Below are positions 2,240-20,243 of a stretch of DNA of 64,000 nucleotides, one piece after another (position 1 is the stretch's first letter; each line of letters opens with the position of its first letter). The notes beneath the pieces were generated by a model. That model searched no databases. It was not told the DNA's origin and saw only the letters and a list, made by a program, of their open reading frames with translations. This stretch comes from Thermomicrobiales bacterium (GTDB lineage Bacteria > Chloroflexota > Chloroflexia > Thermomicrobiales > UBA6265). The translations under genes and the position numbers were made by a program. The stretch lies in contig JAGQGU010000013.1 in NCBI GenBank assembly GCA_020432165.1, positions 10,613 through 74,612 of the forward strand, written 5' to 3'.

Positions 2240-2395
2240 TTTCCCCACCCTTTTGCTGAACTCTCTCATATATTCGTGGCTCCATCATAGCGCTCATTGC
2301 TGTCTCACCGGTTCGTGGAACAATGCTCTGATACTTAATTCCGACTGAATTGGTATATATTCCAGAATTGGAATATCATCGGCTTGAGGGGAGTC

Positions 2396-3853
2396 ATGAC
2401 CCCGAAACAGATTGTCAAACGTTCGTCTGGTACCGACAGGACGTCCAAGGTGAGGAAGGGTTACTTGCGCACAGGCAAACATACCTACAAACGATCGTCG
2501 CGTTCTGCGGACGCTTCGTTACATGGTTTGGCCAGAGCCGTGAAGTCCGCCCGCAAGCGCTCGGGTATGACGCAGGCCGAACTGGCAAAAGCTATCGGAG
2601 CATCACAGGGGAACATCGCCAGGCTCGAGAGCGGACAGCATGCTCCTTCTGTGCGTGTGCTTCAGAATATCGCCATCGCAACCGATTCCCGCCTCACTAT
2701 CGACCTAAAGCCGCTATCGCATAGGAGATTCGACATGCTACAGACGACACGACGACATTTTCTGGAGGGCGCTGCCGGCCTTGCGGGAACACTCGGGCTT
2801 GGCAATGTGCGCTACGCCACCGCTGAGGAAGCAACCGCCGCCGCTGCCGGGATTGAGAGTTACGTATGGACTCGTCCCGAATATGACCCGGAGCCATCAC
2901 TCTTCACAATCACCGATAGGACTGACGACACCGTAACCGTGGAGACAATCGATGGTGTAGTTGAGGTGCCGGCGGATCCGAAACGCATCGTTTCGTTGGG
3001 CTGGGAATACATCTCACTGTTCGAACTTGGTCTCGCGGATCGGGTGGTAGCCGTTACGTTCACAACCCACGGAACCATGGAAGATATGCTCTGGGGTGCG
3101 GGCGACAAAACTGCCGACCTCATCGCAGCCTATGCCGATGTTGACTTCCTGGAAGTCGGACACAATGGAGTGGATCTGGACGTCGAGCAACTCATGCTTC
3201 TGGAGCCCGATCTGATCCTCTCCAGCCCGTCATTTGACTATGACATGGAAATGCTCAACTCGATCGCTCCCGTGATCCGAGGTACAGCCCACGCACCGAT
3301 GGTGCCCCGGGCGTGCATCCGTGACTATGGTGCACTATTCGGCCTGGACGATGTGGCGACGACGCTGCTTGAGGAACACGAAGCCTACGCCGCTCGTGCT
3401 CGCGAAGCCGTTGTCCCGGTGATTGAGGGCAAAAAAGCGATCGTGATCGTCTACTACCCCGAGAGCGGAGACTGCTATGGCTACGCCTCGTATTACAAGC
3501 AGAATGGCGGGATCTTCACGACAATCGAGGGAGCATATCAGCTCCAGCGCGAGATGAATATCACTCCCTCCAGCTTCATCGAGCAGCTCTCGGATGAGAA
3601 GGATCGCGAAAGCTACGCCGTGCCGTTCTCGTTCGAGCTCATCGGCCATGTCGATGTAGATCACATCTTCCTCTACCGCATCGGTGATAGCTACGATGTG
3701 TTTGTGAACTCTCCATCGGTTCAGCAAACAGTCGCTGGTGGGGCTGGTCAGATTTACGATTACGATCCGCCGTCCTTCGGTTTTGGTCTCGGTGGTGTTC
3801 AGGCGACTCTCACATGGATGGTCGAGCAGATGACGGGTGAAGCATTCGGGTAA
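2396..3853 (+). CDS. XRE-family HTH domain fused in frame to a Tat-signal-bearing ferric-siderophore substrate-binding protein (Peripla_BP_2-like)
   Basis: GGGGAG lies before the ATG at 2396. HTH: GMTQAELAKAIGASQGNIARLESG. Internal MLQTTRRHFLEGAAGLAGTLGLGNVRYATA starts at ATG 2735, preceded by GGAGA (2724-2728). SBP motifs are PKRIVSLGWEY..LGLADRVVAV and LEPDLILSS. There is no stop codon between the two parts. Confidence 0.7.
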   Translation: MTPKQIVKRSSGTDRTSKVRKGYLRTGKHTYKRSSRSADASLHGLARAVKSARKRSGMTQAELAKAIGASQGNIARLESGQHAPSVRVLQNIAIATDSRLTIDLKPLSHRRFDMLQTTRRHFLEGAAGLAGTLGLGNVRYATAEEATAAAAGIESYVWTRPEYDPEPSLFTITDRTDDTVTVETIDGVVEVPADPKRIVSLGWEYISLFELGLADRVVAVTFTTHGTMEDMLWGAGDKTADLIAAYADVDFLEVGHNGVDLDVEQLMLLEPDLILSSPSFDYDMEMLNSIAPVIRGTAHAPMVPRACIRDYGALFGLDDVATTLLEEHEAYAARAREAVVPVIEGKKAIVIVYYPESGDCYGYASYYKQNGGIFTTIEGAYQLQREMNITPSSFIEQLSDEKDRESYAVPFSFELIGHVDVDHIFLYRIGDSYDVFVNSPSVQQTVAGGAGQIYDYDPPSFGFGLGGVQATLTWMVEQMTGEAFG

Positions 3854-3901: not shown

Positions 3902-4252
3902 ATGACGGACAAGACAACGAGTGCCGAGTTCGAGGCATATCCGCACCGTGTATCGGGCGAACTGGTGCATAATCGCGCCGCCCGCTATGCCAAACAGCTG
4001 ATCAGCCATTGGCGTAACGACTCCATGGAAGTTGACGAAGCCACAAACACCACAACGGTTTCGTTCAGCCAGCTTCCTCCGGATTGGGTGTCTGCCACCC
4101 GCTTCGAAGTAGAGGATGGACGCGCCGTCTTCACGGTTGCAGCACCAACTGCCGAGAATGCGCAGCGCGTGGCTGAGTCAGTGGAAGAGCATATTCTTGG
4201 GTTTGCTGGAGACCGGGATGTGCTGGAGTTCACCTGGAACGCACCAGAGTAG
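3902..4252 (+). CDS. DUF2218-like small protein (commonly linked to siderophore-interacting proteins)
   Basis: ORF 3860..4252. Starting from ATG 3902 it reads MTDKTTSAEFEAYPH...RAARYAKQLISHW...VFTVAAPTAENAQRVAESVEEHILGFAGDRDVLEFTW, which resembles the DUF2218 pattern (ASRYLxQLCxHF ... L.V.W) as I remember it. Confidence 0.55.
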   Translation: MTDKTTSAEFEAYPHRVSGELVHNRAARYAKQLISHWRNDSMEVDEATNTTTVSFSQLPPDWVSATRFEVEDGRAVFTVAAPTAENAQRVAESVEEHILGFAGDRDVLEFTWNAPE

Positions 4253-4276: not shown

Positions 4277-4312
4277 GACAAGACCGGGCAGTAGTTGCTG
4301 CCCGGTCTTGTC
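4277..4312 (+). terminator. Perfect 15-bp stem hairpin after the DUF2218 gene
   Basis: GACAAGACCGGGCAG-tagttg-CTGCCCGGTCTTGTC. There is no clear U-tract. Confidence 0.45.
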
Positions 4313-4514
4313 GTTCCTGACAGAGGGATTCCTTCACATGAAATAACTCTGACTGAATTGGTAGGTATTTGAAAGCCGGAATATACTACCTAAATAGTCG
4401 GATATCTACAGCGTCCGCACCGCGGCAAAGCTCTGTTGTGGTAATCAGACAGACACCGAATAGCTTCTACATTTCAGGTCGCCAGTGTGGCGACCTGAGT
4501 GGTGCATGTGAGGA

Positions 4515-7160
4515 ATGCAAATGCCCAAGCGAGGTTTCCAGGGTGCGGTATTGCGCAGTTTTGGGGCGCAGGATCATGAAGCAACGGTGACCGATACCGA
4601 GATGTTGGCGCCGGGATTCAGGCGTATCTGGTTTACCTCGGCCACCCTGTTCGACGAAATTGAGCCCGCGCCAACTGCATGGCTCCGATTCTGGTTTCCA
4701 GATCCCGACGGCAAGGATGTCGAGCATCAACGGGCCTACACCATCAGCGAAGCGGATGTAGAGGCAAACACCTTTGCCGTGGATGTTGTGCTGCACGAAC
4801 CTGCCGGAGCAGGCACAACGTGGGCTGCCAATGCGCAGCCAGGCATGACGATATCCCTCACCTCCATGGGATCGTCCAGGTTTGAGCTACCCGCTGAGCT
4901 ACCCGCTGAGTTACCGGCAGGCTATCTCCTCATAGGCGATTCATCGTCCGTGGCTGCGCTCAATAGCATCGTCCGCACCATTCCGGCCGAGATCCCTATC
5001 GAGCTCTACCTCGAGCAACATCGGGATGAGGACAAACTCATCCCCCTCGCTGACCATCCTCGCCTATCCATACATTGGGTGCCACGTCACGGAGAAGAGT
5101 CCTTTGCCGCAGCGATAGAAGCACGCAATTGGTCGAACTGGTATGCGTGGGCCAACCCTGAGTCGGCATCGCTGAAGCACATTCGCAATCGCTTGCGTGA
5201 TGAATTCGGATTTCCGAAATCTGAGTTCCACCAGCAGGCATACTGGGTTCACGGTCGTTCGATGGGCAAGCTGCGTTCAAACCGGGACATAGCTGATGAT
5301 GCGGCAGACTACACCGCCGAAACGGCTCCTGCAGAATCCGATCCCATCCCAACGTCAGCAACCGATCGGGTTAGCGCACCGGCTCCAACCAACTCCAAAA
5401 ATCAGGGAGCGTGGCGTGCTCAGGCCGGCAGCCGCCTCATGGCTCCATTGCGACGCTCACTGATTATCGCGGGGATCGTCCAGGGCATCGTCACGCTTAT
5501 TCAGTTGGCTCCATTCTTTCTGTTGGTCCAGCTGGCACGCTTGCTTCTCGATGACGCACCCGAATCCCAACTCTGGAGAGTGGGCTGGTGGGCTGTAGGA
5601 CTGCTGGGATTGGGGACGCTCCTCTCTTCGGCGCTGATGTTCTGGTTGCACACCGTGGACGCGCGTTTCGAACAATCAATCCGCCAGCGGCTGTTGGGCA
5701 AACTGGCCCGATTGCCATTGGGATGGTTCGATGCTCGTACCTCCGGCCAGGTGAAACAGTTGGTGCAGGATGACACACTCTCACTGCACTATCTCGTGAC
5801 ACATGCTGTGCCAGACGCGGTCGCCGCTGTGGTCGCACCGGTCGCGGTATTGGTGTACCTCTTCGTGGTGGACTGGCGGCTTGCTCTGCTGCTGTTCATT
5901 CCGATTCTGGTGTATGTGCTCACCATGTCGAAACTGGTCGTCCAGTCGGGGAGCAAAACCTCCCACGCACTGAAATGGGCCGAGCGGATGAACAGCGAAG
6001 CTGGCGGCTACCTTGAAGGTCAACCGGTCGTGCGTGTGTTCGGGGGTGCCACCGCATCCACATTCCGGGCAAGGCTGGGCGAATACATCACCTTCCTCAA
6101 CGAATGGCAGCGACCATTCATTCGACAGAAAACCATCATGGACCTGGCAACACGGCCAGCAACCTTCCTGCTGCTCATCGTTGTCTTCGGCACACTTTTG
6201 ATCACCACCGATCGCATGAACCCGGTTGATCTCCTGCCGTTCTTGCTCCTCGGCACAACGTTCGGCGCTCGTTTGCTTGGCATCGGCTATGGCCTATCCG
6301 GTCTGCGCGCCGGATTCCTTGCCGCCCGCCGTATTCAGGTAACACTGGATGAACCGGAGCTGGAAACAGCCACCGCGACTGCAACTGATACAGAGGCAGC
6401 GTCCGGGTTGGTTGAGTTCGAGAATGTCGATTTCTCATACCGACCCAATGTACCCGTATTGCAAGCTATCTCGATCCGGCTGAAACCAGGCACCGTCACC
6501 GCGCTGGTGGGCTCCTCTGGATCTGGCAAATCGACGTTGGCGGCGCTCCTGGCGCGATTCCACGATGTTGATTCCGGTCGGATTCGTATTGGTGGTCGGG
6601 ATATCAGGGAACTCACCGCTGAAGAACTCTATGCTCGGGTTGGATTCGTATTCCAGCAAACCCAGCTTGTGCACGGCACGGTCCATGACAATATCGCCCT
6701 TGCCGTGCCTGATGCGACCAGAGAGAGTGTCGAAAATGCCGCGCGTGAAGCGCAGATTCATGAGCGGATACTGCGGCTGCCCCAAGGTTACGAAACCGTT
6801 CTCGGGCCAGATGCCGCGCTTTCCGGTGGCGAACGACAACGACTAACGATCGCGCGGGCACTCCTTGCCGATACCCCCGTGCTGGTACTGGACGAGGCCA
6901 CCGCTTTCGCGGATCCGGAATCGGAATACCTCGTGCAACAAGCTCTCAACCGGCTTACCGTGGGCCGCACGGTGTTGGTCATCGCCCACCGATTGCACAC
7001 CATCACCGGAGTCGACCAGATCGTTGTGCTCGATCATGGTCGGATCGCCGAAGTCGGTATCCATGAGGAACTACTGCTCACCAACGGTCGCTACCGGCAG
7101 TTGTGGGATGCAGGTGGCACCGTAAACCCGACAGCCACGATGACGGAGGAGACCCGATGA
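4515..7160 (+). CDS. irtA: IrtA-like protein: N-terminal siderophore-interacting FAD-binding domain fused to an ABC transporter TMD plus NBD
   Basis: 881 aa. The N-terminus resembles SIP/ViuB ([43 protein letters not shown]...[16 protein letters not shown]...[10 protein letters not shown]). Six predicted TM helices follow. The NBD has Walker [10 protein letters not shown], signature LSGGERQR and Walker B VLVLDEAT. The architecture matches mycobacterial IrtA. A start at 4521 is also possible. Confidence 0.85.
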
Positions 7161-8902
7161 TCCGCACCCTGTTCGCTCTCCTGCCGCCAGACACCCGCAG
7201 CAAAACAACCACGCACCTGATACTAACGGTGCTGAGCGCGATGCTCCGCGCAGGCACTGCTGTAGCCCTCGTTCCGCTTATTGCGGCGCTCTTCGGGCAA
7301 GTACCGAAGGACGCCTGGCCGTGGGTGGCGTTGTTGGTAGCCCTTACCGTTGCAGGTTGGATTGTGGACTGGCTCGTGGCCCGGATCGGATTTGATCTGG
7401 GATTCGGGCTGCTGGATACCGGTCAACACGCTGTCGCCGATCAGATATCCCGCACCCGGCTAACCTGGTTCAACGCCCAAAATACCGCCACCGCACGCCA
7501 GGCAATCGCTTCCACCGGTCCGGAGTTGGTCGGTCTGATGATCTACCTAGTTACGCCGTTGCTGAGCGCCATCCTGCTTCCGATTGCTATTGCCATTGCA
7601 CTGGTGCCTATTGCCTGGCAGCTGGGGCTGGCGGCGCTGGCTGGTGTACCGATATTGCTCGGCGCTTATGTCGCCGCCAGCCGAATCGGTCGCGCGGCCA
7701 ACCAGGGAATGATGGACGCCAATAGCTCACTTACCGAGCGAATCGTCGAGTTCGCTCGGACCCAACATGCTCTACGTGCCGCACGCCGCGTGGCACCGGA
7801 GCACAGCCTGGTGGGAGAGGCATTGGCTCACCAACATGGTGCAACCCGGCGATTGCTGCTCATGCAGATACCGGGACAGCTCCTCTTCAGTTTGGCCAGT
7901 CAACTCGTACTCATCATCCTGGCAGGAACGACGGTTGTCCTCGCCTCCTCCGGCAAACTCTCGGTTCCCGAGGCAATCGCGCTCATCGTGGTCATCGTCC
8001 GCTATCTCGAACCATTTACGGTATTGGCCGAGCTTAGTACGGGTGTGGAGATATCCATTGGCACATTACGCCGTATGCATAGTGTCCTTAATGCACCGCA
8101 AACAAACTCCGGGACTGAGGAAGCCATCATCACCAATGCGGCAAGCATCAGACTGGAAGACGTGAGATTCGGATATGGTGGCGATGACCTAGCCGTGCTT
8201 GACGGATTTGATCTGACTCTTCAGCCCGGTACCACTACCGCTATCGTTGGTCCCTCGGGCTCGGGCAAATCGACTGTGCTCGCACTCCTCGCCGGACTCC
8301 ACGATCCAGGATCGGGGCGAATCCTGATTGACGATATCGATGCGGCGTCCCTGACTGCCGAAGCGCGAGCAAAGATGGTGAGCGTTGTCTTCCAGCACCC
8401 CTACCTCTTTGATGGCACGATTCGCGAAAACATCCTCGCTGGCAATCCAGATGCTACCGACCCGGAAATGAAGGAGGTCGCCCGACTCGCCCGGGTGGAT
8501 TCGGTGACGAATCGGTTACCGGATGGCTGGGATGCCCGGGTTGGAGAAGCCGGTACCTCGCTTTCTGGTGGTGAACGTCAACGCGTTTCGATTGCGCGAG
8601 CATTGCTTAAACCTGCGCCCTTGCTCCTGGTTGACGAGGCCACCAGTGCCCTCGATACGGAGAACGAGATCGCCATCACCGCGGCGCTCACCGACGACAG
8701 TCGCAGTCGGACCCGCGTCATCGTCGCCCACCGCCTCGGCAGCATCCGCGCGGCTGATCGGGTGATTTTCCTTGAGGATGGAAGAATCGTTGAGGATGGT
8801 TCTATCGACGAACTCCTGGCCGCTGACTGCAGATTCGCGGAATTCTGGCGCCAACAGGATGCCGCCACGGGATGGCGACTCGGTACCACGCCAGTCGCGT
8901 GA
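7157..8902 (+). CDS. irtB: IrtB-like ABC transporter half (TMD plus NBD), partner of the IrtA-like protein
   Basis: ATG 7157 overlaps the irtA stop (ATGA) and is preceded by GGAGGA. Motifs are [17 protein letters not shown] and LLLVDEAT. The longer ORF from 7103 overlaps irtA and is unlikely. Confidence 0.85.
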
Positions 8903-9104: not shown

Positions 9105-10781
9105 ATGAATAGCACAACATCGCCTAATCTGAATTGGGAGATCACAACACCGCAACGGGCCGAGATCGACGCGCTCTTCGCGAATTTCACCAATGCCACA
9201 CCCGGTGCAGCGATGGCGATCTACCGTGAGGGCGAAGTCGTTTACGCAAACGGGTACGGACGAGCACACCTGGAATATCCTCTTCCGATCATCCCAGATT
9301 CCATCTTCGATATCGCGTCGATCTCCAAGCAGTTCACCGCGATGTGCGTGGCGCTGCTTCAACAGGATGGTCTGCTTGATGTCGATGATCCGGTGCAGAA
9401 GTATTTTCCCGAACTCCCCGAATGGGAGCATCCAGTAACGGTTCGGCATCTCATCCATCACGTAAGCGGTATTCGCGACTATCTGGGTGTTCTGCCCCTT
9501 GCCGGGTGGCGCGATGAGGACCAGATGACGAACGCAGACTGCCTCAAATACATCGCGCTGCAGAAGCAGCTTGAGTTTGAGCCGAATACACGCGAGGAAT
9601 ATAGCAACTCCGGTTATGTGTTACTGGCGAGCCTGGTGGAACGCGTCGCGACTGTACCGATGAGGCAACTTGCCCATGAGCGCATCTTCGCACCGCTCGG
9701 TATGACCAACTCACACTTCAACGATGAGCACGCGACAGTCATCCCCAACCGTGCACAGGCATATCGCCTGATGCCTGATGGTAGCTATCGCATCGATATC
9801 ATGCCGCTGGACGATCTTGTCGGCGATGGTGGTCTCTTTACTTCTGTCATCGATTTCGGCAAATGGATCGCCAACTTCACCACCTGTCAGGTAGGAGGCC
9901 AGGATCTGCTGGAGATGACCCAAACACCCGGCACTCTCAAGGACGGCACGCCGATGGAGTACGCCTGGGGTCTGGGTATTGACGAGTTCCACGGATTCCA
10001 TCGCGTGGGTCACAGCGGCGGCTGGGCAGGATATGGCAGCAACTATTTCCGCTTGCCCGAGCTGGGATTCGGCGTGGCCATCTTTGCCAACTTCCACAAT
10101 GTGGGACCGAGTGATCTCACAGACCGCATTGCAGAAATCGTACTGGCCGATATCTTCTCGACTCAGAAGACAGGTAGTACGCCCGACGATGACGCTGTTT
10201 CCGAGATTAATCTCCGGGATGTTCTGGTTGTAGAACCATCGTCCCTGGCTGGCGTGTATGTGCAGGACAACGGAGAATCGCATCTCTGTGTCGATGATGA
10301 CAATGGCCAGCCCTTCCTCTCGGTTTACAGTCAAAAACTCACACTCAATCAACAGGATGATGGGAGTTTCACGCAGAAGTGGAGACACTTCGTGATTCTC
10401 CCGATTGATATTGATGACGACGGCCAGGTATCCACCCTACGTGTCCAGATGCTCGTGGGAGAGGACCGCACGGAGCAGATCTTCAACCGGGTAACACCAT
10501 GGGGCTCAGTCGCCAGCGACATTGCCGGCAACTACTACAGTGACGAGCTTGATGCAGTGTGGGAGGTCGCCCTGGATGACACAGGTGCCTTGATGGTCGT
10601 TCGACCGAAACACGATGCGGACCTCTATGCTCCAGTAGCTGCGGACTACTTTGGAACAGGTGGTCTCGCGATGGGTGTGGGTATCCGCTTCCATCGCGAC
10701 GATGCTGGCGATGTGACGGGCTTGACCTATGGTGGGAGACGCTTTGGCACGTTCACCCTCACCAAAGTTGTCCAGGGATAG
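9105..10781 (+). CDS. Serine hydrolase of the beta-lactamase (class C / PBP4*-like) family with a C-terminal extra domain
   Basis: 558 aa with an SxxK motif in DIASISKQFTAMCVALLQQDGLL and YSNSGYVLLA. GGAGA lies before the ATG. It is a paralogue of 13736..15394. Confidence 0.8.
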   Translation: MNSTTSPNLNWEITTPQRAEIDALFANFTNATPGAAMAIYREGEVVYANGYGRAHLEYPLPIIPDSIFDIASISKQFTAMCVALLQQDGLLDVDDPVQKYFPELPEWEHPVTVRHLIHHVSGIRDYLGVLPLAGWRDEDQMTNADCLKYIALQKQLEFEPNTREEYSNSGYVLLASLVERVATVPMRQLAHERIFAPLGMTNSHFNDEHATVIPNRAQAYRLMPDGSYRIDIMPLDDLVGDGGLFTSVIDFGKWIANFTTCQVGGQDLLEMTQTPGTLKDGTPMEYAWGLGIDEFHGFHRVGHSGGWAGYGSNYFRLPELGFGVAIFANFHNVGPSDLTDRIAEIVLADIFSTQKTGSTPDDDAVSEINLRDVLVVEPSSLAGVYVQDNGESHLCVDDDNGQPFLSVYSQKLTLNQQDDGSFTQKWRHFVILPIDIDDDGQVSTLRVQMLVGEDRTEQIFNRVTPWGSVASDIAGNYYSDELDAVWEVALDDTGALMVVRPKHDADLYAPVAADYFGTGGLAMGVGIRFHRDDAGDVTGLTYGGRRFGTFTLTKVVQG

Positions 10782-10855: not shown

Positions 10856-11037
10856 GATCTGGACATTCCCAGGCAGACATCCCACTGAATCCCCAATTCT
10901 TAATTCCGACCATATTTGACGGATATGCATGTAATTGCATACTATGGCTCGTGTGATCGAGTCGACGAGATCGTCATTGGAGCAGAGTTGAGAGATGCTG
11001 GCCACATCGACCGCTGCCCCTACAGAGTTAGGGAAAC

Positions 11038-12480
11038 ATGAAATCGCCACGACGGACTGAGCAGAAAATCTCCCCCTCCGATCTCCTCTCCCGAGAGGAA
11101 GCGCAGGAGATTGTGGACGCGATTGTGCGAGCCCGAAAGCGGGCGGGACTGACTCAGGCGGACATCGCGCAGGCAATGGGTATTACCCAGAGTAGCGTCG
11201 CCCGGCTGGAAAGTTCAGCCACACTCCCCCGCCTGAGCACGCTGCAACGTTTCGCCCGGGCGACATCTTCCCGTATCCATCTATCGATCGATCCCGTGAG
11301 TAATCACGATATCAGAACTGCGAGCCATACCATGACCGATATGCTTACACGACCTGGCCACTCAACTGATCGCCGCCGTTTTCTTGGCGGTGCAGTGGGT
11401 TTGGCCGGAATGCTGGGACTCAGCAAAGTGAAGCATGTCACTGCGCAGGAGGCGACGGCAGCAGCTGAAAGTGCGGACGATTACGTGTGGCAACAGCCAG
11501 ATTGGCACAATATACCCAAACTCTTCGAGGTTCTGGAGCATCACGGTGAATCTGCTCTAGTCCGCACCGGCGATGGGGAGTTCGAAATTCCCACTAATCC
11601 GCAGAGATTGGTCTGTCTCAACTCTGAGTACACAACTCTCATTCCACTTGGCCTAACCAGTGGTTACTTCGGGGTTGATGTGCATTGGGGAACCGGGGAA
11701 CCATCGGCAAGTGGTGAATTTTCAGATGACATCCAATCGATACTCGCAGACGTCCATCGTATATCTACTCCATGGGAGTTGAACGTGGAAGAGGTTATAG
11801 CACTTGAACCTGATCTTGTGCTCGGGCGAACCGGATGGCAAACCGATCAGAACTACGACGCCATCTCCCCTATCGCACCGATGGTTCGGTTCGGCCCAAG
11901 CGCCTACTACTACCCCCGCCAGGGTCTCAAGGACTATGGCGAACTGTTCACCCTATCTGATCGCGCAGACAAGTTGATCGCGGGCTTTGACGCGCTCATA
12001 GATCGCGCGAGAAAGGCTCTGGAACCGTTCGTCCAGAACGTAAAAGTTGCGGTCATGGAGTTTGATGGTGGCACAGAACTCTATGCCTTTGTCAGCTACT
12101 TCGTATCCTTTGGCGGACTCTTCGGAGAGGATGGCAGGGTTCTGCCAACAGGTGACACTCAAACATTCTTCAAAGAACTCTGTCTAACACCATCAAGCTT
12201 CATCGAGAAGCTTGGTGATGATATAGGGAGAGATCAGGCCTTCTATGTGAACTTCTCAATGGAGCAGATCGGTCTCGTTGACGCCGACTATATCTTCGTA
12301 ATCGGCAAAGCGGACATCACGGACGCTTTTATCAACGAGTCAATAGTTAAGTCCACGGTTGCTGGCAAAGCAGGTCAAGTGATTCCGCTTGATGTAGCTT
12401 CCTTTGGATTCGGATTGGGAGCACAGCGAGCCGAAGTTCGTGCGATCGTCGAGGCTATCACCGGTGAGCCATTCGCATAG
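11038..12480 (+). CDS. Second XRE-HTH / Tat-signal / siderophore substrate-binding fusion (paralogue of 2396..3853)
   Basis: HTH GLTQADIAQAMGITQSSVARLESS. Then comes MTDMLTRPGHSTDRRRFLGGAVGLAGMLGLSKVKHVTAQEA (internal ATGs at 11332 and 11341). SBP motifs are PQRLVCLNSEY and LEPDLVLG, with a C-terminal FGFGLG...ITGEPFA shared with the first copy. Confidence 0.7.
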   Translation: MKSPRRTEQKISPSDLLSREEAQEIVDAIVRARKRAGLTQADIAQAMGITQSSVARLESSATLPRLSTLQRFARATSSRIHLSIDPVSNHDIRTASHTMTDMLTRPGHSTDRRRFLGGAVGLAGMLGLSKVKHVTAQEATAAAESADDYVWQQPDWHNIPKLFEVLEHHGESALVRTGDGEFEIPTNPQRLVCLNSEYTTLIPLGLTSGYFGVDVHWGTGEPSASGEFSDDIQSILADVHRISTPWELNVEEVIALEPDLVLGRTGWQTDQNYDAISPIAPMVRFGPSAYYYPRQGLKDYGELFTLSDRADKLIAGFDALIDRARKALEPFVQNVKVAVMEFDGGTELYAFVSYFVSFGGLFGEDGRVLPTGDTQTFFKELCLTPSSFIEKLGDDIGRDQAFYVNFSMEQIGLVDADYIFVIGKADITDAFINESIVKSTVAGKAGQVIPLDVASFGFGLGAQRAEVRAIVEAITGEPFA

Positions 12481-13735: not shown

Positions 13736-15394
13736 ATGACCATCACACCACCGACTTCTCCACGCTGGACGGTCTCCGACAGCACCCGCGCGTCCATAGA
13801 TGCGGTCTTCGCAGGGTTCACCAACACCACACCTGGTGTGGCGATGGCCATATATCGCGGTGGCGAGATCGCGTATGCCAACGGCTACGGGATGTCCAAC
13901 CTCGAGCACAATGTGCCGATCACGCCGTCGTCGATCTTCCACGTCGCTTCTATCTCGAAGCAGTTCACGGCCATGTGCATCGCGCTGCTGCAAGATGATG
14001 GACTGCTGGATGTCGACGACCCCGTGCAGAAGTACATACCGGAACTGCCGACATACGAATATCCAATCACCATTCGCCATCTGATCCACCACGCCAGCGG
14101 TATCCGCGATCATTGGATGCTGCTGGACCTGTCGGGTTGGCGCGAGGATGATCTGGTCACCATGGCAGATTGCTATGACCTGGTTAGGCGACAACAGGAA
14201 CTGAACTTCACACCAAACGATAGATTCATGTATAGCAATGCTGGCTACATGCTGTTGGCCATGATCGTGGAAAAGGTCTCAGGCAAGTCGTTGCGGGAGT
14301 TCGCGCACGAGCGCATCTTTGCTCCACTGGGTATGACCAGAACACACTTCCACGATGATCACTCCGAGATTGTTCCGGGTCGAACCCAGGCGTATAAGCC
14401 GCGCACTGGTGGTGGCTACCGTGTCTCGATTCCGCAATTTGATGTGGTGGGCACAACCAGCCTGCAAACAACAGTCGAGGATTTCGCGAAGTGGAACGCC
14501 ATCTTCGAGTCACCAACCATCTGTTCAGCAGAGATGCTCGCACAAGCGCAAACACCCGGAACATTCAACAGTGGTGAACCCATGGCGTATGGCTGGGGTC
14601 TGTTTCTGGAGGAATGGTGCGGACAGAGACGTGTCTGGCATAGCGGCTCCAATCACGGTTATCGAGCGTACTACTTCCGGTTGCCCAATCTCGATTTCGG
14701 TATCACCGTGTTCGCCAATCTCTCCACTGTCGCGCCAGATCAACTTGCGGCCAGAGTCGCCCGGATAGTGCTGGGTGATCTCCTGCAAGAGGACTCTGAT
14801 GCGGAGATATCCACCACCGAGCATTCCGATATCGTTATGGTTGATCCCGCTGCGATGGTTGGCGTCTATCTGGCAGACAACCCAACTGACAACGAGCCAC
14901 CGCTGCACGTCCAGTTGGACGAGGAAGACAGTGAACTCATCATGCCATTCGGACGCGAGTCTGTGTCTCTACCGCTGGCCGACGATGGTCGCTTCCAGTT
15001 GTGGAGCGGATTCGGTTCGTGCTGGGCGATGGAGATTGATGACTCTGGAATCGTCCAGAAAATCTGCGTGCAGCTCCCGGCTACGAGGGAGACGTATTCC
15101 CGGTTGGACACCAGTTCTGCCAGGCGGAACATCACCAGCTTCGCCGGAACATACTATGCGCCCGAGCTGGATATCTCGATTCAGTTGGTTGAGGATGCGA
15201 CTTCAGGCAGACTCTCCTGGCGACAGCGCAAACAGGAAGATCGCTCAGTAGTTCTGCTGGATACCAACACGCTTGGTATGGGCAGTCTGGATGCAAGCAT
15301 ACGTTTGGAGTTCAGTTTCGACGAGAACGATATGCCCACCGAATTTAGGTTCTCGGCTGATCGAGTGAAGAATCTGCTGTTCGTGAGGCAGTAA
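13736..15394 (+). CDS. Serine hydrolase of the beta-lactamase family (paralogue of 9105..10781)
   Basis: 552 aa with HVASISKQFTAMCIALLQDDGLL and YSNAGYMLLA. It is collinear with the first copy over its whole length. Confidence 0.8.
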   Translation: MTITPPTSPRWTVSDSTRASIDAVFAGFTNTTPGVAMAIYRGGEIAYANGYGMSNLEHNVPITPSSIFHVASISKQFTAMCIALLQDDGLLDVDDPVQKYIPELPTYEYPITIRHLIHHASGIRDHWMLLDLSGWREDDLVTMADCYDLVRRQQELNFTPNDRFMYSNAGYMLLAMIVEKVSGKSLREFAHERIFAPLGMTRTHFHDDHSEIVPGRTQAYKPRTGGGYRVSIPQFDVVGTTSLQTTVEDFAKWNAIFESPTICSAEMLAQAQTPGTFNSGEPMAYGWGLFLEEWCGQRRVWHSGSNHGYRAYYFRLPNLDFGITVFANLSTVAPDQLAARVARIVLGDLLQEDSDAEISTTEHSDIVMVDPAAMVGVYLADNPTDNEPPLHVQLDEEDSELIMPFGRESVSLPLADDGRFQLWSGFGSCWAMEIDDSGIVQKICVQLPATRETYSRLDTSSARRNITSFAGTYYAPELDISIQLVEDATSGRLSWRQRKQEDRSVVLLDTNTLGMGSLDASIRLEFSFDENDMPTEFRFSADRVKNLLFVRQ

Positions 15395-18258: not shown

Positions 18259-19578
18259 GTGGTGTTTGTAGCGATTGTTGCCTCGCTCGCTTGCTGTCTT
18301 CTCTTGAGTATTGTGGTACTTGGGATTAGGCATGCTGACAACTCTATTTCTGGCGCTTCCGAGCAGAGCGATGTGTCCACCGCCGCGTCTGCGGAGTCCT
18401 ACTCATCCTCTCAATTGAGCGAGGTGGTCGCCGAGCGAAGTAATGAGTCGAAGGATTATCTAGACCTGACTAGCGATCAACACGCAAGCCGGATCGGCGT
18501 CATGTCGGAACTTGCAAGGCAGCTGAATCATCTGGGCACTCCACAGGGCGAATATGACGACACTGGCCTATTTCAATCCACAGTTCCACGGATTAGGCGG
18601 AACTTTCCGTTGGGAACCGGCCAAGGGAATCAGTACCCTACTGGGCAGATGAAGCCAGAACCTAAGAAACGCAAAGTAGGCCCATCGCCCACCTCTCAGG
18701 CGATTCCTCGAATAAGCAATTACCGAATCGACCCTCATACTGGATGGCTGATACCAATAGAGAACCAGGTGATTCTCAAAGCACCACCATCCGCCCCATC
18801 TGATTCTCCGCCAGACCGAAAGGTGGGGCTTCCTAAACCGCGTCTGCAGAGTCAAAGGGTTCAAGCTGAAAGACGTGATACACGCGTAGAGGACAGCGAT
18901 ATCGAGGCGCTGATAGCGGCAGCTCATGAGCGTTCGTCGAGAATGAGTGTTCAGGATATTGAGGGACTATATGGGTATCTTGACCTCATGAAACTATCGG
19001 GCCTTCACGCGGGCGATATACCCATTGACAGCATGCTACACAGAAGTCCACCCGAGACAAACTACACCCCGTTAGTAAACCGTTTTCTCAATCTGGGCAT
19101 CAAGCTATTTCACTTCACAGCCAGGCAGAATTCCGACAGCATTAGTTTGACGGGGCTGTTTTGCTCGGACACGTTGAGACAACGAAAAATGCATCCAACT
19201 ATGGTGAGTTCCTTAGTTTCGCAGGAGCAAGACAGAGTATTGGGTCTTGATCAATACGTGCACCTCTGCTTCACTTTGAATGCGAAAATGGCATGGGCTC
19301 ACCACTTCCGATCCACTCAACCCATAGTATGGTTCGAGGTATCTCCAATAGTCCTCGAAGAACCTAAAGTGTTGTTCTGCCGAGACTACGCCAACAAAAG
19401 AGGAGCTGAGTTGCTACCAATTGCCAGCCTCACTGATCTCGACTTGTATGCTCTCGCAACTCAATGCGAGCGAGTTGGATACTGGCAGCTACTAGTACCG
19501 AAAACCATCCGCCAAAATCGAATGCGCAAGGTTTCAGCGTCTCTATACCCACAAGAAGGTCGTTCAATATGGCAGTAA
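18259..19578 (+). CDS. Membrane-anchored protein with a long disordered linker and a C-terminal DarT/Tpt1-like (ADP-ribosyltransferase-fold) domain. The function is hypothetical.
   Basis: A GTG start lies 6 nt after the gpmI stop, with AGAGG as RBS. The N-terminal TM helix is VFVAIVASLACCLLLSIVVLGI. About 250 low-complexity residues follow. The C-terminal domain has LFHFT (19105-19119), QYVHLCF (19252-19272), VLFCRDYANKRG and YWQLLVP (19480-19500). These line up by eye with DarT motifs (L/I)YH(F/I)TH, DYVPFYF, VFTD and AEFLV. GC is lower than in the flanks. Confidence 0.5.
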   Translation: MVFVAIVASLACCLLLSIVVLGIRHADNSISGASEQSDVSTAASAESYSSSQLSEVVAERSNESKDYLDLTSDQHASRIGVMSELARQLNHLGTPQGEYDDTGLFQSTVPRIRRNFPLGTGQGNQYPTGQMKPEPKKRKVGPSPTSQAIPRISNYRIDPHTGWLIPIENQVILKAPPSAPSDSPPDRKVGLPKPRLQSQRVQAERRDTRVEDSDIEALIAAAHERSSRMSVQDIEGLYGYLDLMKLSGLHAGDIPIDSMLHRSPPETNYTPLVNRFLNLGIKLFHFTARQNSDSISLTGLFCSDTLRQRKMHPTMVSSLVSQEQDRVLGLDQYVHLCFTLNAKMAWAHHFRSTQPIVWFEVSPIVLEEPKVLFCRDYANKRGAELLPIASLTDLDLYALATQCERVGYWQLLVPKTIRQNRMRKVSASLYPQEGRSIWQ

Positions 19579-20243
19579 GGCAGATTTTCATTCCCGCTTC
19601 CAAACCGCCTTACTGGTCCGAGACTAGTGTTAGTTTTGAGTGGCACCCTGGACTATCGACATCTCAGAAAATGAAGTCCGTCCAGTCACTCCATGAAAGT
19701 GCCAAGATTCGATTTCCCAATATCTCCCTACTAGAAGTTTCTACAAAATCTGATATCCAGATGGGAGTCCAGCTCAGTGCGTTCAATCTATATCTGGAGC
19801 AGTCCACTCTCGGCATAGTCCCTTTCGAGGCGGCGTTTCAAAGCTCGAAGGTGTATCGGATGCATGGTCAAATCACCGAAGCGCTTCGTCTTGGCCCCCG
19901 AGAGGCCAAATCCTACGCCAGAACCATCGACCGAGATGATCAGCTCCTAGGCTTTCAGTGGAATGAACGAGTGTGGCCGCTTGAGCCCAAAAGCTGGTTC
20001 TACGATTGGCTCTACATACAAGCACTACTGACCTCAGCACAACATCTGATCGGAAACATTCGCGAATTTGGAGGATTCACTGATATCGAGTTTAACCCGC
20101 TGAAGTCTTTCAACTGTCAAGCGAGAACATGCGCGATAGTTGCATCCTCGCATGACGACAGTCAGCTGTCACAATGGATTCAACATCCTGAGTTGTTACT
20201 AGGTGACCCTCAGGGGCTGACAACACAAGTTCGGCTCTTTTAG
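19569..20243 (+). CDS. Hypothetical protein translationally coupled to the DarT-like gene. I recognise no family.
   Basis: ATG 19569 overlaps the last 10 nt of the upstream gene. The sequence is MAVRQIFIPASKPPYWSETSVSFEWHPGLS...WFYDWLYIQALL...FTDIEFNPLKSFNCQARTCAI. The ORF-track start at 19464 would overlap the upstream gene by 115 nt. Confidence 0.55.
   Translation: MAVRQIFIPASKPPYWSETSVSFEWHPGLSTSQKMKSVQSLHESAKIRFPNISLLEVSTKSDIQMGVQLSAFNLYLEQSTLGIVPFEAAFQSSKVYRMHGQITEALRLGPREAKSYARTIDRDDQLLGFQWNERVWPLEPKSWFYDWLYIQALLTSAQHLIGNIREFGGFTDIEFNPLKSFNCQARTCAIVASSHDDSQLSQWIQHPELLLGDPQGLTTQVRLF

Follow-up and report, generated by a model that had tools for sequence, protein, structure and literature searches.

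One Thermomicrobiales reading frame joins an XRE DNA-binding domain to a twin-arginine signal and a siderophore-binding protein, and may encode both an exported binding protein and its regulator

The window, a 64,000-nucleotide stretch of DNA from a Thermomicrobiales bacterium (contig JAGQGU010000013.1), was found to hold a long ORF (2384..3853, + strand) in which the reading frame and Pfam matches placed an XRE helix-turn-helix (HTH), a linker, a twin-arginine (Tat) signal and a siderophore substrate-binding protein (SBP) one behind the other. As this fused ORF carries a conserved internal ribosome-binding site, the gene probably yields an exported SBP together with its regulator. To the full reading, in which two nested products are made, one the exported SBP and the other a long-form repressor of its own promoter that answers to siderophore, we assign a probability of about 0.45.

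The frame was open from TTG2384 or ATG2396 to the TAA at 3851-3853, and the domains proposed for it in a preliminary description of this DNA, an XRE HTH followed in the same frame by a class III SBP, were recovered by Pfam and AlphaFold2 (AF2), the SBP by Foldseek also. The XRE/Cro-C1 HTH domain (2540..2689, +) matched HTH_3 over residues 53-102 of the 489-residue ORF (2e-11, 44.2 bits against a cut-off of 23) and also scored above threshold with HTH_31 (37 against 27), while Peripla_BP_2 was matched over residues 202-462 (1.4e-10, 41.4 bits against a cut-off of 27.5), so that all three models stood above their curated cut-offs. The N-terminal part was confidently predicted to fold as an HTH (pLDDT 76-91), with helices at residues 35-59 (a long one), 64-71, 75-83 and 90-99 and with profile matches in the PDB to HipB, PlcR and MBF1. 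In the 2384/2396-3853 ORF a 34-residue linker separates the HTH from the Tat signal, and linker and signal together (residues 106-141) were disordered in the AF2 model (pLDDT < 50). The mature class III (FhuD/CeuE-type) siderophore-binding domain (2825..3853, +, stop codon included; Peripla_BP_2) was again modelled with confidence (pLDDT > 90), a long helix at 322-347 joining its two lobes. In the PDB profile search it matched B. subtilis FhuD (3hxp, 7.6e-19), and Foldseek matched it to YfiY (3tny, TM 0.80) and FhuD2 (4b8y, TM 0.81), with target-normalised TM-scores of 0.71-0.81 across YfiY, FhuD2, CeuE and SirA. The closest fold matches point to a siderophore of hydroxamate or carboxylate type. 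No fixed HTH-SBP geometry or inter-domain contact was predicted in the AF2 model. A search of NCBIfam found no model spanning the whole fused protein, every match lying below its cut-off, and the fused genes are at present annotated merely as 'ABC transporter substrate-binding protein'.

The Tat signal peptide, MLQTTRRHFLEGAAGLAGTLGLGNVRYATA (2735..2824, +), was recognised by its RR pair, weak h-region, basic c-region and AxA site. Published consensus elements for such signals (PMC7317946) start with an S/T-R-R-x-F-L motif, continue with a Gly-rich, weakly hydrophobic h-region at least 12 residues long and end with a basic c-region and an AxA site, and all of these are present in MLQTTRRHFLEGAAGLAGTLGLGNVRYATA, in keeping with its earlier description as a textbook twin-arginine signal. 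The motif here reads T-R-R-H-F-L, with RR invariant in the family, and the h-region GAAGLAGTLGLG consists of 12 uncharged, Gly/Ala-rich residues (mean Kyte-Doolittle 1.18) followed by NVR and then by the predicted cleavage site ATA|EE, after nucleotide 2824. The best 19-residue segment of this gene gave a rough Hessa dGapp of +8.6 kcal/mol on a position-independent and approximate scale, which bears out the earlier judgement that so weak an h-region would not make a stable transmembrane helix. Across the fused ORFs the uncharged run was 12-22 residues long, with rough dGapp values of +4 to +10 kcal/mol, and the RR pair, weak h-region, basic c-region and AxA|Q site were found in 21/21; no lipobox Cys is present. 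This hydrophobic segment thus has, by its sequence, the character of a cleavable signal and not of a stable anchor, and export is predicted. In the long ORF, the signal begins only at residue 114-118; it is N-terminal only in the proposed product of ATG2735.

That the fused ORF is genuine and under selection we hold to be close to certain. All 21 distinct fused ORFs examined, which came exclusively from Thermomicrobiales or unclassified metagenomes, were open through the junction of HTH and signal, which bears on the question, raised in the preliminary description, of whether HTH and SBP are always one ORF in orthologues. Their linkers between HTH and RR ranged from 34 to 61 residues. The window itself carries a paralogue (11038..12480, +) of the same build, which shares 38% identity with the gene through HTH, Tat signal and SBP together and has the same Pfam domains, and one related contig (L016) carries five fused genes in tandem. 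An assembly or sequencing error at the junction was ruled out, because the fused frame recurs in independent NCBI MAG, Logan, ENA and JGI assemblies and because two copies lie in the window. A programmed frameshift, or a stop in another frame, at CATAGG (TAG) was also considered and was dropped for want of conservation in L008 or L010. The protein P0007 was ruled out as an unfused orthologue: its contig (L002) holds a full 492-residue fused ORF, and its unfused look came from the gene caller's choice of start alone. No split pair, with an XRE gene ending just before an SBP start, was seen, the sole candidates for stand-alone HTH genes being P0070 (107 residues) and P0146 (128 residues), which stop inside the signal region and are probably contig-end fragments. 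A query with the N-terminal module yielded, out of 42 candidates, generic small XRE proteins only, and was uninformative about other cargo since it missed its own family; a metagenome scan added one further locus only (L014). In a distant clade most SBPs are unfused, and the unfused relatives bear the same type of signal as the fused ORFs.

Between the window gene and its orthologues P0003 and P0004, the HTH was nearly identical at a whole-protein identity of 49-52%. P0005 and P0009 shared an identical HTH-plus-signal module on SBP domains only about 44% identical, with a recombination breakpoint inside the signal-coding region. An identical head on such different SBPs argues against allosteric co-adaptation of HTH and SBP.

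Evidence for a second start came from the region just ahead of the signal, where codon usage, conservation and duplex energy picked out an internal Shine-Dalgarno (SD) sequence, AGGAGA (2723..2728, +), written in the rare Arg codons AGG and AGA (3.9% and 5.7% of Arg codons). The GGAGA at 2724-2728, its 6-nt spacing and the ATG at 2735-2737 (codon 114 counted from ATG2396) all lay where the preliminary description had placed them. Within 46 proxy genes of the window, only 2/319 in-frame internal ATGs were preceded by AGGAG at 5-10 nt, one of them being ATG2735, and the 9110 codons of 19 genes from the window contained a single in-frame AGG-AGN pair, at this very site; both rates place the internal ribosome-binding site beyond chance. 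The anti-SD duplex energy at 2735 was -7.3 kcal/mol, internal ATGs having a median of -2.9 and true starts one of -6.6, and across the family the internal starts had stronger SD energies than internal ATGs at large (Mann-Whitney p = 0.0016, n = 20 vs 482), a comparison that overstates independence because the sequences are related. RNA around 2735 was less structured than shuffled controls (z = +1.5).

The arrangement AGGAG, 7 nt, ATG was kept in the window gene and in its orthologues on L008 and L010, which are about 50% identical, and in one of these three the encoded residues had changed from R-R to R-S with AGGAG still kept. Members of the distant clade carry GGAGG, AAGGAG and similar motifs 5-10 nt before the internal Met codon. 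Every fused member has a Met 5-25 residues ahead of RR. On the strength of this conservation and of the unfused relative P0175, whose start codon is the equivalent internal Met, the ATG at 2735..2737 (+) is proposed as the codon at which the short, exported product begins, and NCBI's gene caller started P0007 at the same Met. In MTDTL, the largest clade and the one to which the window paralogue belongs, anti-SD pairing was at background (-2.2 to -3.5 kcal/mol; -2.2 kcal/mol at the paralogue's internal ATG, 11332), so that internal initiation is possibly clade-specific or the Met is a relic there. The earlier proposal of two products from one ORF thus gained from an internal Met present in all members and equal to the P0175 start, and from the kept AGGAG, and found no such support in the SD sequences of the MTDTL clade. 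On balance the internal start is probably used in the window gene, and both starts may be in use.

Candidate starts for the long form were TTG2384, ATG2396 and TTG2465. The gene caller's version (P0001) runs for 462 residues from TTG2465, with GGTGAGGAAGG just upstream. The codon equivalent to ATG2396 begins a uORF of 7 codons in L008 and lies in another frame in L010, and ATG2396 is therefore an uncertain choice.

Promoter and operator calls were consensus-based. A sigma-70-like promoter, TTGGTA, 18 nt, TATCAT (2350..2379, +), was found upstream of the gene by consensus scan, and homologues had a similar upstream layout (TTGnnn, 17-18 nt, then TAnnnT or ATAnCA). Four nucleotides upstream of its -35 hexamer lies the box AATTCCGAC (2337..2345, +), whose position is kept in most family promoters; it has a second copy in the window at 10902-10910, in the paralogue promoter, and its frequency within the window is no higher than chance, its significance coming from the conserved position only. 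A repeat search located a putative operator, ATATTCCA-gaat-TGGAATAT (2357..2376, no strand assigned), a perfect 8-4-8 inverted repeat inside the promoter spacer that overlaps the -10, and a search allowing up to 3 mismatches turned up no second full site in the window. With the direct repeat GAATTGG[T/A]ATAT at 2347 and 2365, this accounts for the upstream repeats that the preliminary description had reported between 2334 and 2376. The paralogue promoter (10902..10945, +) has the same box, TTGACG (10916), 18 nt and TACTAT (10940), with a palindrome of its own, TATGCA-n6-TGCATA, at 10924-10941.

A palindrome in the spacer was found in at least 12 family genes, and its letters followed the recognition helix. 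The helix ASQGN (ASQGNIARLE) went with the half-site TATTCCA (TATTCCA..TGGAATA) in three genes, I[TS]QS with TATGCA in two, T[DE]Q.. with ATGTCA or ATGACA in three and TTQSV.AK with ATATCG in two; TKQAF went with a TAAGGA half-site, and paralogue groups with other helices had different palindromes at the same promoter position. This co-variation suggests that the HTH is probably an autorepressor. From these pairings we consider it very probable that the HTH binds the promoter palindrome, at which it would repress.

Downstream of the fused gene and in the same orientation lies a DUF2218 gene (3902..4252, +; Pfam 4.2e-13), by which the L013 homologue is likewise trailed, and then an IrtA-like and an IrtB-like gene (4515..8902, +; Pfam FAD_binding_9, SIP, ABC_membrane and ABC_tran), the former joining a SIP/FAD domain to an ABC half-transporter of the exporter fold. 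The promoter of the IrtA-like gene (4351..4387, +) has GACTGAATTGGTA and the half-site GGAATAT in common with the 2343-2376 promoter; it has one good half-site only, matching at 12/16 operator positions, a likeness spotted by eye. Such an IrtA/IrtB-like pair was present in the window only and was absent from the related loci examined. Over the window and these loci together, the neighbours of the fused genes are Suc_Fer-like, DUF2218, beta-lactamase-fold, MFS or IrtAB-like genes. Class III SBPs are typically encoded with a FecCD-type permease and an ATPase; no FecCD permease gene was found by Pfam among most of the large ORFs at 1-45 and 50-63 kb of the window, nor in loci L005-L013 or L016, and we count this in favour of a sensing role.

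These features can be joined in a mechanism in which initiation at ATG2735 behind AGGAGA would give an ordinary Tat precursor, to be exported and cut at ATA|EE into a siderophore-binding protein, and initiation at TTG2465 or ATG2396 would give a longer product with the XRE HTH ahead of the same signal and SBP. A dimer of the long form would bind ATATTCCA-n4-TGGAATAT through its HTH, between its own -35 and -10, and so repress, possibly with the related irtA promoter as a further target. The SBP domain, linked in cis, would make the repressor siderophore-responsive, and each module would have its own substrate as inducer; such substrate-specific induction agrees with the tandem arrays, in which the operators differ from one another. 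The long form would carry a Tat signal in mid-protein chiefly because the short product needs those codons, and in it the signal may act as a flexible linker or may target part of the pool for export. TatBC should still recognise a Tat signal placed in a linker, and retention of the long form in the cytoplasm is for that reason not assured. That the long form senses ligand at all is a tentative proposal, to which we give somewhat less than even odds, and ligand binding would in that case relieve repression. Sensing could take place in the cytoplasm, as in Btr (below), or after translocation of the SBP domain, each of these sites being conceivable at slightly unfavourable odds. More tentative again is the view that the same binding domain serves as exported SBP and as the repressor's sensor, with the Tat signal as linker and with head and body as exchangeable cassettes.

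A single long product could also be made to fit the complete signal and the AxA site conserved in 21/21 fused ORFs if export and repression were coupled, the SBP being translocated by Tat while the HTH stayed inside, and cut at ATA|EE, and the remaining stub of HTH plus signal peptide acting as repressor, either on leaving the membrane or once freed by signal-peptide peptidase or a site-2 protease. One repressor would then arise per exported SBP, a stoichiometric negative feedback in which the internal Met and SD are relics or a minor supplement. Dual Sec-Tat membrane proteins show that a Tat signal can function behind other protein segments (PMC5449189), the operator lies where a repressor would be expected to bind, and an HTH-plus-signal part that can be swapped between SBPs suits a mechanism needing no domain contact. 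We nevertheless regard coupling to export as unlikely, since it leaves unexplained both the universal Met and the conservation of AGGAG as nucleotides where the amino acids changed, and since, having no substrate specificity, it does not explain paralogue arrays with distinct operators and SBPs; nor was a conserved protease gene found near the related loci. The preliminary description had offered, as its alternative, a ToxR-like bitopic protein, which would remain uncleaved as in ToxR, CadC or BcrR, with the HTH inside and the SBP outside, and would sense external siderophore and relay the signal across the membrane. Such an N-in/C-out topology agrees with the order of the domains and with the positively charged residues ahead of the hydrophobic segment, and the segment would be an alternative tether for an SBP that has no lipobox Cys. 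Sensing siderophores from outside is, moreover, a common logic. This alternative is disfavoured by the weak, Gly/Ala-rich h-region of 12-17 uncharged residues, with dGapp roughly +8.6 kcal/mol here and +4 to +10 in the family, and by the conserved signal-peptidase site, the basic residue and AxA|Q of every member being marks of a cleavable Tat signal (PMC7317946). As the unfused relatives have the same signal type, and as nothing in this model explains why an internal ATG and SD should be conserved, we judge a bitopic sensor to be quite improbable.

The covalent link might, lastly, be functionless, the gene for an XRE repressor having lost its stop ahead of a downstream Tat-SBP gene. Both parts would then work just as they had before the fusion, the SBP being made from the internal start. 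The identity of the internal start with the P0175 start, the excess of unfused over fused SBPs in the distant clade and the lack of inter-domain contact in AF2 can all be read that way. A neutral link should often break by stop or frameshift, yet it is in frame in 21/21 ORFs, even between paralogues only 38% identical and in spite of numerous indels in the linker, and a split version was not seen, P0070 and P0146 looking like contig-end fragments; a neutral fusion we accordingly consider very improbable.

The nearest known system is Btr (YbbB) of Bacillus subtilis, a one-component bacillibactin sensor in which an AraC domain is joined to a FeuA-like siderophore SBP domain (PMC3333878), and which runs against the statement in the preliminary description that no HTH fusion to this SBP class had been described. 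In both proteins a DNA-binding domain is covalently joined to a class III SBP-type domain, and siderophore uptake is controlled with the substrate as the presumed signal. Btr is an AraC-type activator that acts at a direct repeat upstream of the -35, whereas here the domain is XRE and a palindrome lies in the promoter spacer, a repressor position. The SBP domain of Btr has no export signal, the transported FeuA being encoded by a separate gene, unlike the present case, in which a complete Tat signal stands between the domains and the exported SBP apparently comes from the same ORF. ToxR, CadC and BcrR resemble the long form in that a cytoplasmic DNA-binding domain comes first, followed by a hydrophobic segment and then by a domain outside the cytoplasm. 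They have stable transmembrane helices and no signal-peptidase site, and the DNA-binding domain of BcrR is an XRE HTH. The segment described here differs from theirs in bearing the marks of a cleavable Tat signal and in failing a rough transmembrane test.

In-frame internal starts that give differently localised isoforms are also known, as in E. coli speA (bioRxiv 10.1101/520783), and the likeness lies in one ORF with two starts whose isoforms differ in exposure of an N-terminal signal. In the speA type, however, the internal start removes the signal and the short form is cytoplasmic, whereas here it would expose the signal and the short form would be exported, with the long form gaining a DNA-binding domain. 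Actinobacterial Rieske proteins, which belong to the dual Sec-Tat membrane proteins and have their Tat signal in an internal position (PMC5449189), illustrate that a twin-arginine signal away from the N-terminus is able to send a folded C-terminal domain across the membrane; theirs follows Sec-inserted transmembrane helices and stays as an anchor, whereas ours is preceded by a soluble DNA-binding domain and carries a cleavage site. No description of a protein combining XRE, Tat signal and SBP was found in the limited literature searched.

One consequence holds for annotation, as the plain substrate-binding label of the fused genes is corrected. If the proposed reading is right, these genes would be a reverse case for the few bacterial alternative-start genes that send isoforms to different compartments, and would offer a natural test of how Tat handles a signal that has a folded cytoplasmic domain in front of it. 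The co-varying recognition helices and operators would be orthogonal repressor-operator parts linked to siderophore-binding domains, of possible use in biosensors. Uptake would be substrate-inducible in a very compact form, and the specificities of uptake and induction would be coupled by construction, for with one domain and one gene serving both, sensor and binding protein could not drift apart. Arrays of insulated, substrate-specific modules for using the siderophores of other organisms would thereby become possible.

The gene at 2384/2396-3853 (forward strand) was found to be a single open frame running from TTG2384 or ATG2396 to TAA3853, both in our reading of the window and in the ORF listing, and it encodes an XRE HTH (residues 53-102; Pfam HTH_3, 2e-11) and a substrate-binding protein (SBP) domain (residues 202-462; Pfam Peripla_BP_2, 1.4e-10). 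This upheld the preliminary description of one ORF joining an HTH to a siderophore SBP, and its positions for GGAGA (2724-2728) and the internal ATG (2735) were exact on re-reading. The stretch between the two domains reads ...HRRFD-M-LQTTRRHFLEGAAGLAGTLGLGNVRYATA/EEATAAA. In an AlphaFold model of the long ORF, built on an alignment of 11 sequences, the HTH was confident, residues 106-141 (linker and signal) were disordered and the SBP domain was very confident. Foldseek and PDB profile searches identified the latter as a class III siderophore binder, with matches to B. subtilis FhuD, YfiY, FhuD2, CeuE, SirA and FtsB. Beside the predicted transcription start lies GAGTCATGACC (2386-2400), conserved in the three orthologues (window, L008, L010); only in the window does the ATG within it share the reading frame of the gene, whereas in L008 it opens a 7-codon uORF and in L010 it lies out of frame, so that the long form may truly start at TTG2465.

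When the segment following the linker was compared with the features listed in a review of Tat targeting (PMC7317946), an RR motif, an uncharged stretch of 12-22 residues rich in Gly/Ala, a basic c-region residue and an AxA cleavage site before Q/E were present in 21/21 proteins, as expected of the twin-arginine signal proposed earlier. The best 19-residue window scored +4 to +10 kcal/mol across these proteins and +8.6 kcal/mol in this gene by a rough, position-independent Hessa calculation, agreeing with the earlier impression that the h-region is too weak for a TM helix. The unfavourable values and the conserved cleavage site argue for a predicted cleavable Tat signal and against a stable ToxR-like bitopic protein, though not conclusively, the Hessa scale being crude. 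Directly after the predicted cleavage site (2825-2848, and in homologues), every close family member has A-x-(Q/E)-E-A-T-A-A-A without variation, and this motif forms a short helix in the AF2 model (residues 147-155); unfused relatives carry QQATP or QEATPAA at this position. Mature N-termini are usually far less conserved.

The fused architecture is a conserved family and no accident. The window encodes a paralogue at 11038-12480 (+) with the same three parts and 38% identity across HTH, signal and SBP. Database searches returned relatives only from Thermomicrobiales MAGs and unclassified metagenome assemblies. At 50% identity no more than 32 clusters reached a score of at least 1e-30, and close fused relatives make up about seven of these; a clade of more distant fused proteins (P0048, P0112, P0116, P0118, P0149) has its own signal n-region, MSxDPRxP..F..W..SRR. 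On the question of whether HTH and SBP are always one ORF, the junction was open in 21/21 distinct fused ORFs, with an HTH-to-RR linker of 34-61 residues. Genuinely unfused SBP relatives also occur, and in the distant clade they outnumber the fused ones. This makes it probable that the family descends from an ordinary Tat-exported SBP gene to whose 5' end an XRE gene was joined. One candidate unfused relative, P0007, was ruled out, as its contig encodes a full 492-aa fused ORF and the difference was one of start-codon choice. The three orthologues of this gene hardly differ in the HTH, while their whole proteins share 49-52% identity. A metagenomic contig (L016, 1603-9293; L017 is part of it) carries five tandem HTH/Tat-signal/SBP genes (450, 494, 437, 470 and 430 aa). 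An MFS_3 transporter comes next, while an MFS_1 transporter, an alpha/beta hydrolase and a luciferase-like oxidoreductase lie on the flanks; no ABC permease was found in this array.

A Met lies 5-25 residues ahead of the RR in every fused member, within a linker whose surrounding residues vary, and the unfused relative P0175 begins at the equivalent Met (MTFDPRSPHAHQISRRKLLG). The codons ahead of it are CAT AGG AGA TTC GAC in the window, CGC AGG AGA TTC GAG in L008 and GAA AGG AGT TTC GAC in L010, so that AGGAG at 7-nt spacing is retained despite a change from R-R to R-S. AGG (3.9%) and AGA (5.7%) are the two rarest Arg codons here, the single in-frame AGG-AGN pair in 9110 codons of 19 window genes is this site, and of 319 internal in-frame ATGs in the window only 2 are preceded by AGGAG at 5-10 nt. 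In the distant clade GGAGG, AAGGAG, GAAAGG, AGGAAAGGG, AAGGA or GAGAAGG stands 5-10 nt upstream of the Met. Median anti-SD duplex energy was -3.65 kcal/mol for the conserved internal Met of the fused family (n=20), -2.9 kcal/mol for other internal in-frame ATGs (n=482; Mann-Whitney p = 0.0016) and -6.6 kcal/mol for called gene starts (n=65). This signal is uneven between clades: it reached -7.3 to -8.5 in the clade of this gene, whereas in the MTDTL clade, to which the paralogue belongs, pairing was no stronger than background (-2.2 to -3.5), although G[CT]GAG is retained there and its Ser is always AGY-encoded. RNA around 2735 was less structured than shuffled controls. Internal initiation is accordingly likely for this gene, a prediction from sequence to which we give a probability of roughly two in three, and uncertain for the paralogue.

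The promoter scan placed TTGGTA-18-TATCAT at 2350-2379, and a perfect inverted repeat, ATATTCCA-gaat-TGGAATAT (2357-2376), with no second copy in the window, occupies its spacer and overlaps the -10. Upstream regions of homologues share this layout, while the palindrome varies by group and tracks the recognition helix: ASQGNIARLE (window, L008, L010) is paired with TATTCCA..TGGAATA, I[TS]QS.. (the paralogue, L013) with TATGCA..TGCATA, T[DE]Q.. (L001, L004/5, L011) with ATGTCA or ATGACA, TTQSV.AKLE (L015, L016 gene 5) with ATATCG..CGATAT, and TKQAF with ATAAGGA..TCCTTAT. Equal helices have equal sites and unequal helices unequal sites across the family promoters, a pattern to be expected if operators are recognised specifically and paralogues are insulated from one another, and the HTH looks like a working, if putative, autorepressor. 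Independently of the palindrome, a box, AATTCCGAC (core CCGAC), lies ~5 nt 5' of the -35 in most family promoters (2337-2345 and 10902-10910 in the window; upstream of L001, L008, L010, L011, L012, L013 and L016), forming an inverted repeat with the -35 region, TCCGAC-n7-GWCGGA, in some (L013, L012, the paralogue).

Conserved neighbours are a divergent F420/luciferase-like oxidoreductase, Suc_Fer-like and/or DUF2218 genes, and a D-aminopeptidase-like beta-lactamase-fold hydrolase. The ~555-aa paralogous beta-lactamase-fold proteins of the window (9105-10781 and 13736-15394; top match D-aminopeptidase, well below its cut-off), one after each HTH-SBP module as also in L006 and L008, may be peptide-siderophore hydrolases, and the Suc_Fer-like protein (PF06999; 12496-13644), immediately 3' of an HTH-SBP gene here as in L005, L008 and L012, may act in iron release as a ferredoxin-like partner. 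An IrtA-like/IrtB-like pair is present in the window only, compared with related loci: FAD_binding_9 and SIP domains joined to an exporter-fold ABC half-transporter (4515-7160), and a plain half-transporter (7103/7157-8902) that overlaps it by 4 nt if ATG7157 is the start. The IrtA-like gene has a promoter-like site (4351-4387, TTGGTA-18-TATACT) that has 13 nt (GACTGAATTGGTA) and a half-site, GGAATAT, in common with the HTH-SBP promoter (2343-2376), which suggests co-regulation or a duplicated promoter, and the two genes may belong to one regulon. A 15-bp perfect hairpin (GACAAGACCGGGCAG-tagtt-CTGCCCGGTCTTGTC, 4277-4312), 25 nt past the DUF2218 stop and without a clear T-tract, probably terminates the first transcription unit ahead of the irtA promoter. 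No FecCD permease was adjacent to family genes at any locus examined, nor was one present among the window ORFs scanned against Pfam (most large ORFs in 1-45 kb and 50-63 kb), which makes the family members orphan SBPs or sensors, with a membrane partner that would lie at some other locus. Elsewhere in the window, 18259-20243 is a likely DarT-NADAR toxin-antitoxin pair (a 439-aa ORF whose C-terminal end weakly matches a DarT-like ADP-ribosyltransferase domain, 7e-8, then a strong NADAR-DarT1 antitoxin match, 2e-64), inserted between iPGM and GH20 relative to syntenic loci, and 53001-55727 (-) encodes a 908-aa STAND-type regulator with AAA/NACHT, TPR and a C-terminal LuxR/GerE HTH.

The best-supported reading is that this gene has two nested products, in which the short form would be an exported SBP and the long form an autorepressor bearing the same SBP domain, giving substrate-specific induction. 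This would explain why a Tat signal lies in the middle of the long form, as its codons must serve the short product, and also the persistence of the Met and SD, the retention of the in-frame link and the distinct operators in paralogue arrays. Its rivals are a neutral fusion, an export-coupled regulator and a bitopic sensor. Were the gene to encode an export-coupled regulator, signal peptidase cleavage of one polypeptide would leave an HTH stub, and the conserved cleavage site would be used in the long form; in a bitopic sensor the segment would stay in the membrane, against which stand the rough Hessa values and the site conserved in 21 proteins. Syntenic loci of related MAGs at L005 8001-9425 and L006/L007 8001-9443 encode P0005 and P0009, which show 100% identity over residues 1-129 (HTH, linker, internal Met, RR and half the h-region) and only ~44% beyond, with a recombination breakpoint inside the signal-coding region, so that promoter and HTH head were kept and the SBP body behind them was exchanged. 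An HTH-plus-signal head is thus able to take a different SBP body, a modest argument against an allosteric interface that is finely co-adapted.

We found no description of the XRE HTH/Tat-signal/SBP architecture in the literature searched, and no NCBIfam model covers the fused protein. The statement that no HTH fusion to this SBP class had been described is contradicted by Btr (PMC3333878); Btr, however, is an AraC-type activator without a signal, unlike the XRE HTH, Tat signal and putative autorepressor here. Internal Tat signals are known only downstream of Sec-inserted helices (PMC5449189). In known internal-start isoforms of differing localisation the short form loses the signal (bioRxiv 10.1101/520783), whereas here the proposed short form would gain an exposed one. 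The family is best regarded as a new variation on one-component regulators with an SBP domain, joined here to a putative nested-isoform gene.
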